Source of the DNA: Escherichia coli
Lineage (GTDB): Bacteria; Pseudomonadota; Gammaproteobacteria; Enterobacterales; Enterobacteriaceae
Assembly (NCBI RefSeq): GCF_003334315.1
Contig: NZ_QOWR01000004.1
DNA: 64,000 nt
Reading direction: 5' to 3' (one strand)
Each line of letters starts with the position of its first letter. Position 1 is the first letter of the stretch. Under the pieces are notes generated by a model. The model did not search any database, was not told the origin of the DNA, and saw only the letters and a program-made list of their open reading frames with translations. A program made the translations under genes and the position numbers. Below are positions 2,834-6,581 of this stretch, one piece after another.

Positions 2834-4658
<1,825 letters not shown>

Positions 4659-4800
4659 AGATTAGAAATCCTTTTGAAAGCGCATTGTTATGAGTTTACG
4701 CATATGGATTCATCTGGCAAATAAAAACGCGGGAAAAGCACTGGTCAGCGTCGGGGGTGGGGGTATAATGACCATTCTGTTATTGCATAGAGTAGTTAAC

Positions 4801-4974
4801 ATGAAGCGGAGTAGAACGGAAGTGGGGCGCTGGCGCATGCAGCGTCAGGCTAGCCGACGTAAATCGCGTTGGCTTGAGGGGCAATCGCGCCGAAATATGC
4901 GTATCCACAGCATCAGGAAGTGCATTCTAAACAAACAGCGTAACTCGTTATTGTTTGCGATCTACAATATCTAA
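4801..4974 (+). CDS. yciY: Small highly basic protein YciY (57 aa)
   Basis: ATG at 4801 inside supplied ORF 4690..4974; product MKRSRTEVGRWRMQRQASRRKSRW... is Arg/Lys-rich; TATAAT-like box at 4764-4769 upstream; matches recalled YciY. Confidence 0.65.
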   Translation: MKRSRTEVGRWRMQRQASRRKSRWLEGQSRRNMRIHSIRKCILNKQRNSLLFAIYNI

Positions 4975-5028
4975 ATGTACTGGGCACCATTGCGGTGCCC
5001 AATAAGTTTACTCTTCCGTCTTTAAACT

Positions 5029-6282
5029 CTATTTTTGCGCCGATTCTTTACTGTCAGCTTTCGTTTCTAGTTCATCGTTATCGCTGAAAATACCATGACC
5101 TGAGTTCAACAACATTGAAACGAGCATATCATTATTAATCTCTTCACCATTTAAAACTCGCGCCAGAATTTCGCTGCCAAACAGTTGCGGTGAGAGAATG
5201 ATATCCGGATGTACCATCTTAATCTTATTCAGGTTTTTGCTATCACTGACGGCGAGAACTGTTTTGACATCACTGCTCATATCTTTTGCCGAGAGTACAA
5301 CAAACGCGTTATCTGCATCGTTATCACTCAGCGCCAGAATGGCCCGGCAACGATCGATTCCCGCTTTCTTTAATACAGAACTGTCATTACTGTCACCGGG
5401 GATAACATCAGCATTATCGCCTAAGCGTTGCTCAAGTTGCTTGATATCATCTTCAGGCAAGTTGCTGATAACCGTTACGTTTTGTCCGCGTTGATTCAGT
5501 TGCAGGATCGTATTGATGGCGAGAATCGAATGTCCGCAAACAATAAAATGATCTTTACGATGCATTGTATGATTGTTTCCTTTTACAAGTTTGTTGAATC
5601 CCCCGCGGATAAGCGGACCAAAAATTGAGGTCATAGATGTGGCAAAAACGGTAATGCCGGAAATAATGACCGAAATAGTGAACAATCGTGCTGATTCAGA
5701 AACAGGGACAATATCGCCATAGCCGACGGTTGACATGGTTTCTATCGAAAAATAGAACGCGGTCATCAAACTTTCTATTCGCGGATTAAAACCTTCGCTT
5801 AAATAAAGCGCACCGTAGGTTGAGTAAAACAGTAATGTCGTGAAACTAATAAATGCAAAAATTGTCCCGGCTGCGGCGCTACTGTGGGAGAAGTCTTTGC
5901 GCAGTATCAGCAAAAACACCAGCGTAAAAATGCAAAATCCAATACTAAATTTCAGCCAGGGATAAAAATGCAGGGTGTAAATTAGCGCTATCAACAACAA
6001 AATGATACTGATTGCCCATGCGAGCTTTGCCCGGAACAGTAAGCCAATGGAGTTCAGGACAAGAAAGACGCCGAGCATAAAGAGTGGGGCGTTTGCCAGC
6101 AAGGAGAGATCCAACTCTGAAAATGCTTTGATATGGAAAATATCAAGCAAATTGACCGACATACCATAGATTGTTTTAAAAATAAGCAATCCATTTAAAA
6201 AGACGGCCAGCGCGAGAATGTCGTGCCGAAGGGTCACCCATAAATTTGTTGCTGTTTGTTTGAATGTAGCCCAGTGACTCAC
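5029..6282 (-). CDS. kch: Voltage-gated-like potassium channel Kch (TM pore domain + RCK/TrkA-N domain)
   Basis: GTG start at 6282 gives 417 aa MSHWATFKQ...; K+ selectivity filter TVGYGD visible (ETMSTVGYGDIVP); C-terminal Rossmann-like RCK domain (FIVCGHSILA); longest ORF would start at 6300. Confidence 0.9.
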   Translation of the reverse strand: MSHWATFKQTATNLWVTLRHDILALAVFLNGLLIFKTIYGMSVNLLDIFHIKAFSELDLSLLANAPLFMLGVFLVLNSIGLLFRAKLAWAISIILLLIALIYTLHFYPWLKFSIGFCIFTLVFLLILRKDFSHSSAAAGTIFAFISFTTLLFYSTYGALYLSEGFNPRIESLMTAFYFSIETMSTVGYGDIVPVSESARLFTISVIISGITVFATSMTSIFGPLIRGGFNKLVKGNNHTMHRKDHFIVCGHSILAINTILQLNQRGQNVTVISNLPEDDIKQLEQRLGDNADVIPGDSNDSSVLKKAGIDRCRAILALSDNDADNAFVVLSAKDMSSDVKTVLAVSDSKNLNKIKMVHPDIILSPQLFGSEILARVLNGEEINNDMLVSMLLNSGHGIFSDNDELETKADSKESAQK

Positions 6283-6581
6283 TGATACCTCTGTAACCAC
6301 AATTTTGTTTAATTATCTTAGCGTGCACATTTTCTGAACATACATGCAGCGCGTGAATGTGTTAAACAATAGTAGATGACTTTATCCGCAGTAATCAAAG
6401 GATTTGAGCGAGCAACTGTACCTCAGGAAAGGTCATTTTTCCTGAATATGCTCACATCATATAAAGAAATACAGATAAAGTTATTATCTGCTTGTGGTGG
6501 TGAATGCACTGACCGGCTATAAGGAAAGGCCAAACAAGAACACGGTTGCAAAAACCGTGCCCTTAAATATTGAATCTCTAT

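Follow-up and report, generated by a model that had tools for sequence, protein, structure and literature searches.

The small gene yciY, divergently paired with cls, encodes a strongly conserved polycationic protein in Enterobacterales

yciY is a real gene for a small protein, transcribed from its own promoter and translated, and it belongs to the core of the Enterobacterales chromosome. In the window (the whole 64,000-nucleotide stretch of Escherichia coli DNA analysed here) the ORF occupies positions 4801-4974 on the plus strand, from an ATG at 4801-4803 to a TAA at 4972-4974, and its 57 codons are translated into the 57 residues MKRSRTEVGRWRMQRQASRRKSRWLEGQSRRNMRIHSIRKCILNKQRNSLLFAIYNI. 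The product is proposed to be an arginine-rich helix that binds a specific polyanionic partner, most likely structured RNA or the ribosome, a tentative model that we hold at somewhat less than even confidence. The features of the locus, in window coordinates, are as follows.

2834-3163, minus strand: yciU, annotated as an HI1450 family dsDNA-mimic protein of 109 aa
3198-4658, minus strand: cls (clsA), cardiolipin synthase, the invariant divergent neighbour of yciY
4693-4720, minus strand: cls promoter, TTGCCA-16-TAAACT, 9/12 matches in the scan
4742-4769, plus strand: yciY sigma-70-type promoter, with -35 TGGTCA at 4742-4747, a 16-nt spacer and -10 TATAAT at 4764-4769
4789-4792, plus strand: weak Shine-Dalgarno AGAG, its GAG at -11 to -9 from the yciY ATG
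4801-4974, plus strand: yciY CDS, 57 codons and TAA, same bounds in RefSeq; product polycationic, with a single helix predicted
4981-5001, no strand assigned: hairpin TGGGCACC-ATTGC-GGTGCCCA, lying 7 nt beyond the end of yciY and 27 nt short of the kch stop
5029-6300, minus strand: kch, potassium-channel gene, convergent and downstream of yciY

The position of the gene between cls and kch and its 57-aa ORF had been given in an earlier note on this DNA. Both were confirmed, the translation exactly as stated there, by the ORF, its neighbours and the RefSeq annotation, in which the same 174-nt CDS is entered as 'yciY: YciY family protein' between these two genes. Members of the family are ORFs of about 56-59 aa lying divergently upstream of cls; here the product is of 57 aa and cls is divergent. 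The protein scored 109.8 bits with NCBIfam NF033701 (yciY_fam), for which the cut-off is 30 (aligned over 1-55 of 56, E = 5e-32), and this was the sole match in the NCBIfam scan at E <= 1. PF26518 was found precomputed on all YciY homologues; the Pfam-A copy scanned was one without PF26518, and it gave no match to YciY at E <= 10, hence none to a family of ribosomal proteins. PHROGs and PADLOC searches with YciY gave no matches. E. coli yciY is the founding member of the family (NF033701/PF26518) and shows no difference from it. The product encoded in the window is identical to that of RefSeq yciY and of the MG1655 ORF 1306812-1306985 (PMC4909307). At least 80% of a 501-nt query was present in 5420 of 5426 complete E. 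coli genomes. The gene is thus already known, being annotated, included in NCBIfam and Pfam, and published as translated. The accessible literature on yciY contained nothing on function; elsewhere the locus has been used merely as an insertion site.

A 94-aa version of YciY starting from the ATG at 4690 (MSLRI...), which is the mechanical ORF and the form chosen by automatic callers in many genomes, was rejected as artefactual. Upstream of the yciY ATG the frame stays open for anywhere between 3 and 91 codons, depending on the species, the middle part of the extension is not conserved, and a conserved promoter lies inside it; the extension is therefore not real. The extension (window 4690-4800) is unconserved as protein, and its conserved start coincides with the promoter and 5' region of cls on the opposite strand.

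Relatives of yciY were found in 319 stretches by a one-genome-per-species scan, from which 80 loci were fetched for comparison, and a word-indexed search with YciY retrieved 128 protein clusters. The ATG was kept in all 80 species, the gene had 57 codons at 72 loci and 59 codons at the other 8, and no frame disruptions were seen across the 80 loci. Variation was mostly in third positions, the entropy at codon positions 1, 2 and 3 being 0.37, 0.22 and 1.08. The median pairwise dN/dS was 0.083 over the whole gene; codons 1-40 had 0.048 and codons 41-57 had 0.18, and values of 0.24-2.7 were obtained in the other five frames over yciY. Residues 1-40 have a non-synonymous divergence (pN) of 0.060, a value within the span of 0.008-0.094 given by 40-codon windows of ClsA, a protein whose whole-gene dN/dS is 0.021. 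Purifying selection on the first 40 residues of YciY is thus comparable to that on parts of ClsA. The start site of yciY was found by tetracycline-inhibited ribosome profiling (TetRP), and a chromosomal Venus fusion to the gene (IVP3, MG1655 1306812-1306985) was fluorescent in both LB and minimal medium; yciY was used as a positive control in the ribosome-profiling study (PMC4909307). In the earlier note, the lack of a translation signal and of a conserved reading frame in related species had been named as findings that would speak against the gene. The frame turned out to be strongly kept (dN/dS 0.08, ATG in 80/80), and the start signal and the Venus fusion are published (PMC4909307).

Two arginine positions are encoded by rare codons across the family. 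Arg5 (AGA, 4813-4815) is specified by AGA or AGG in 72 of the 80 species and Arg39 (AGG, 4915-4917) in 73, and the remaining Arg positions have CGN codons. Together AGA and AGG make up 17% of the Arg codons in yciY vs 3% in cls. Nucleotide-level selection or common ancestry could account for the rare codons at these two positions.

In E. coli C3728, a human faecal isolate, an IS1A element (L089 2702-3575, at about window position 4922) truncates yciY after about 40 codons, and the interrupted gene is marked as a pseudogene in RefSeq. As the element removes the C-terminal third, the intact gene or its C-terminus is dispensable in that strain.

The cls and yciY promoters are placed back-to-back in the 142-bp spacer, with their -35 hexamers 21 bp apart. 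The yciY promoter had 10/12 matches in the consensus scan and lies with its TATAAT 31 nt from the ATG, from which we infer a transcription start near 4776 and a leader of about 25 nt. A TATAAT-like box about 35 bp upstream had been noticed earlier; it is an exact TATAAT at 4764-4769, invariant in 80/80 loci, one from each of 80 species. The -35 region reads CTGGTC in 43/80 loci, and near variants are found in most others. The GAG of the weak Shine-Dalgarno is the sole element of its kind upstream of yciY, and its columns reach 96-100% conservation when the upstream regions of the 80 species are aligned; in this alignment both hexamers of the cls promoter fall inside highly conserved blocks. 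The discriminator following TATAAT (4770-4775) has a mean G+C content of 78% in the 80 species vs 37% for the rest of the leader; what the species share here is a base composition rather than a particular sequence, and the E. coli discriminator is only 3/6 G+C. G+C-rich discriminators are typical of stringently controlled promoters of the translation apparatus. The composition of this segment suggests that yciY may be under ppGpp/DksA-sensitive (stringent) control.

The hairpin past the yciY stop is stable, with fold energies of -17.7 kcal/mol on the plus and -20.6 kcal/mol on the minus strand (z = -4.2 for both). In the sampled Enterobacteriaceae loci the stem GGGCACC/GGTGCCC is found again behind yciY with a varying loop, and no compensatory changes were seen in the stem among these loci. 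It usually stands after an A-run, that is, a U-run for the convergent gene; the U-tracts are poor in E. coli, and a simple terminator scan did not call the hairpin. The structure is probably a shared bidirectional terminator of yciY and the convergent gene. The preceding A-run suggests that it mainly terminates the convergent gene, perhaps working both ways. The Rfam scan of window positions 4000-5600 (E <= 1) gave no match. A leader peptide or regulatory upstream ORF was considered for yciY and rejected, the next gene being convergent and the hairpin lying after the stop.

cls and yciY are divergent in 80/80 Enterobacteriaceae loci, where the gap between them hardly departs from about 142 bp, and in 8 related loci. 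The divergent pair is present in Rouxiella, Morganella, Pectobacteriaceae and Erwinia. yciU lies beyond cls in every locus examined, and yciU, cls and yciY occur together in five Enterobacterales families. The gene downstream of yciY differs, as listed below.

Escherichia only: kch (between yciY and yciI)
Most Enterobacteriaceae: yciI, about 50 bp past the stop
Rouxiella: a ynfU-like gene
Pectobacteriaceae: a chemoreceptor
Morganella: a 244-aa ORF
Erwinia: an Rce1-like gene

Since the downstream gene varies and cls is constant, yciY is placed at the edge of a conserved opp-yciU-cls block, staying with cls where its other flank is rearranged. A profile search run exhaustively over 1.84 billion representative proteins gave 38 YciY matches. 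Small proteins of 18-95 aa account for 37 of these, every traceable one from Enterobacterales, and the remaining match is an 819-aa protein aligned in short stretches only; none of the matches inspected or traced lay outside the family, and no larger protein supplied domain context. Named members belong to Enterobacteriaceae, Yersiniaceae (Rouxiella), Pectobacteriaceae (Brenneria, Pectobacterium, Symbiopectobacterium), Morganellaceae (Morganella) and Erwiniaceae (Erwinia). By these searches the family appears to be confined to Enterobacterales. The phage search gave no YciY homologues, only non-significant Arthrobacter-phage matches (E 0.3-0.5). Of the 22 'plasmid' matches, 20 were typed non-mobilizable and some of the records are of 4.8-4.9 Mb, so that these matches look like chromosomal pieces. 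yciY is a single-copy core gene.

YciY contains 13 Arg, 4 Lys, 2 Glu and no Asp, with a net charge of about +15, a pI of 12.0, a GRAVY of -1.14 and a hydrophobic C-terminus, LLFAIYNI. Arg and Lys constitute 29.8% of the protein and 37.5% of residues 1-40, in agreement with the share of roughly one third put forward in the earlier note. This content exceeds that of all 87 mechanical ORFs of 50-70 aa in the window (maximum 26.4%) and is about 7 sd over the mean of the 43 long window ORFs (10.1%, sd 2.7). Random and out-of-frame ORFs of this DNA are themselves somewhat Arg-rich, and basicity alone is therefore weak evidence of function. AlphaFold2, run on a shallow alignment of 30 sequences, predicted one uninterrupted helix over residues 5-56 with a mean pLDDT of 90.9; disordered basic peptides are often rendered as helices by AF2. 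The predicted helix carries Arg on every face and has no hydrophobic face. Its maximum hydrophobic moment was 0.54 vs 0.52 +/- 0.12 for shuffled sequences, 43% of which reached the observed value. An amphipathic membrane-binding cationic helix was ruled out, the hydrophobic moment being no higher than in the shuffles. A bZIP-like or coiled-coil protein was likewise ruled out, as 0/7 heptad registers had hydrophobic a/d positions. No transmembrane segment was found in YciY.

In the alignment of YciY 14 columns are invariant and 19 nearly so, and Trp or uncharged polar residues occupy many of these. Ser4, Glu7, Val8, Trp11, Met13, Gln16, Gln28 and Ile35 are invariant along with arginines, and Trp24, Leu25, Glu26, Ser29, Asn32 and Ile38 are conserved in at least 90%. 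A Foldseek search of PDB with the single-helix model gave 0 matches, as is expected for a lone helix. The only PDB sequence match was to residues 31-62 of mitochondrial uS14 (uS14m), with E = 0.14 for the profile and 0.66 for the single sequence; reversed and shuffled YciY controls had no match in PDB at E <= 10. This non-significant resemblance may serve as a lead and does not amount to homology. The PDB copy searched, which includes E. coli ribosome structures, gave no significant match to YciY, and therefore YciY is no stoichiometric part of ribosomes prepared in the usual way. The searches yielded no significant relative with a known function or a solved structure.

The presence of Arg on all faces of a non-amphipathic helix suggests that YciY needs a surrounding polyanion, and the position-specific conservation points to one specific partner, not generic electrostatic sticking. 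In the proposed mechanism, the helix would not form a stable free-standing domain and would fold as it binds a single, specific polyanionic macromolecule enclosing it. The partner would most probably be a structured RNA, either rRNA in the ribosome or some other RNA, to which YciY would bind as arginine-rich-motif peptides and the helical extensions of small ribosomal proteins do. Specificity would come from Trp11 and Trp24 and from the polar residues Ser4, Gln16, Gln28, Ser29 and Asn32. The weak translation signals and rare Arg codons suggest that YciY is of low abundance and sub-stoichiometric, and it would act as such a factor rather than as a structural ribosomal protein. RNA is considered the best fit because the tests for membrane amphipathicity, a coiled coil and a transmembrane segment failed, the sole resemblance is to uS14m, and the discriminator is G+C-rich. 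The earlier suggestion that the peptide binds nucleic acid or associates with the ribosome is consistent with the predicted non-amphipathic helix, the position-specific conservation and the weak uS14m resemblance. Counting against the RNA model are the lack of a significant PDB ribosome match, the non-significance of the uS14m match, the failure of any ribosomal-protein family to match in the Pfam and NCBIfam scans, the low abundance to which the weak Shine-Dalgarno and the rare Arg codons point and the 3/6 G+C of the E. coli discriminator, as well as the shallow alignment behind the helix, the invariant linkage to cls and the dispensability indicated by the IS1 insertion in C3728.

The linkage to cls is the basis of the main rival to the RNA model, namely that YciY modulates ClsA or binds cardiolipin and phosphatidylglycerol, the anionic lipids that ClsA interconverts, with its expression coupled to cls. 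We regard this as unlikely. The two genes are divergent at all 80 loci across a gap of about 142 bp with a shared back-to-back promoter region, and the pairing extends to Rouxiella, Morganella, Pectobacteriaceae and Erwinia despite differing downstream genes; however, these taxa share synteny across all of opp-yciU-cls, inheritance alone may thus explain why the two genes are adjacent, and the overlapping promoters make separation of cls and yciY costly. Arg/Trp-rich peptides are classical binders of anionic membranes, and YciY has both the Arg/Trp content and a hydrophobic C-terminal LLFAIYNI, but its helix has neither a hydrophobic face (the moment is as in shuffles) nor a transmembrane segment, and the hydrophobic C-terminal part is the least conserved (dN/dS 0.18). 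Membrane-surface binders usually conserve composition and not individual polar residues, whereas the polar Ser, Gln and Asn positions of YciY are conserved individually. YmdB with ClsC is a precedent for a partner of a cardiolipin synthase encoded by a neighbouring gene, but no small-protein partner of ClsA was found in the literature search, and the literature on b4595, yciU and the cls promoter provided nothing useful. A further alternative is that YciY binds DNA or a DNA-like surface, as a small nucleoid-associated or regulatory protein, perhaps at the cls/yciY control region, or is the basic partner of the very acidic dsDNA mimic YciU, whose gene lies across cls. A net charge of about +15 on a long predicted helix, its complementarity to YciU (30 D+E vs 7 K+R, pI 4.05) and the constancy of the yciU-cls-yciY trio in five families speak for it; the lack of a recognisable DNA-binding fold and of a heptad or leucine-zipper register for dimerisation speaks against, and we consider it quite improbable. 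AF2 modelling of a YciU-(GGGGS)6-YciY fusion from 24 paired rows reached no confidence (pLDDT 42.8, pTM 0.26) and tells neither for nor against the pairing. DUF440/YciU is presumably far more widespread than YciY and hence not dependent on it. There is also a slim chance that yciU-cls-yciY is a charge-complementary unit in which YciY tunes ClsA or anionic-lipid domains or is sequestered by YciU. If true, the three genes would form an unrecognised unit linking anionic lipid synthesis to a nucleic-acid-like binding surface.

Overproduction of highly cationic peptides is often toxic, and YciY could be a dormant toxin or growth inhibitor like the small chromosomal toxins, held low by its weak translation signals and rare codons. 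The small size, the weak Shine-Dalgarno and the conserved AGA/AGG at Arg5 and Arg39 would fit such a role, but type I toxins are defined by a hydrophobic transmembrane segment, which YciY does not have (GRAVY -1.14), the Rfam scan of 4000-5600 showed neither an RNA nor an antisense partner, and there was no PADLOC or PHROG match. The gene is, moreover, a single-copy core gene absent from phages and true plasmids, and it is detectably expressed in ordinary media (PMC4909307). A toxic function is accordingly judged very unlikely; as a type I toxin small protein YciY was rejected, having no transmembrane stretch, Rfam RNA or PADLOC match. Scarcely credible is the view that the peptide is irrelevant and that only transcription or translation through the region counts, by interference with the cls promoter or by antisense transcription or termination on the convergent gene. 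The back-to-back promoters and the hairpin common to the convergent gene would allow this, but there is no same-strand downstream gene, the convergent gene differs among genera, and purifying selection acts at the amino-acid level specifically in the yciY frame, with length and start codon kept. The dN/dS values largely refute this view.

yciY stands among the E. coli genes without a function as a real, expressed and strongly constrained gene. To its existing description are added the predicted non-amphipathic polycationic single helix, the selection acting on it, its age and its range of five Enterobacterales families and the promoters back-to-back with cls. The candidate partners are narrowed to RNA or the ribosome, ClsA or anionic lipid, and YciU, and any one of these, if confirmed, would add something new, if modest, to enterobacterial physiology. 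As a finding it is ordinary: an annotated gene was correctly recognised, and the new material is descriptive.

Among known systems, the small proteins AcrZ, MgrB and PmrR and the ClsC-YmdB pair resemble YciY in that it is small and encoded beside a membrane lipid enzyme, with the adjacency conserved. Modulators of the AcrZ, MgrB and PmrR type are, however, single transmembrane helices, whereas YciY is strongly hydrophilic and without a transmembrane segment; yciY also differs from ClsC-YmdB and the small modulators in being divergently transcribed and not co-transcribed. With uS14m the likeness is the motif WRMLR..RRK...R..RI..[IL]RK, which aligns over about 32 residues with an rRNA-contacting helix, but YciY lacks the rest of uS14, and no significant profile or chain match places it in that family. 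Typical arginine-rich motifs, such as those of the comparison peptides lambda N and HIV Rev/Tat, comprise 10-20 residues. YciY has no detectable homology to these peptides and its conserved segment is longer, about 40 residues, but it shares with them an Arg-rich segment predicted to be helical. To the basic helical extensions of small ribosomal proteins YciY is likewise comparable, as a short Arg-dominated segment, predicted to be helical, with conserved Trp.
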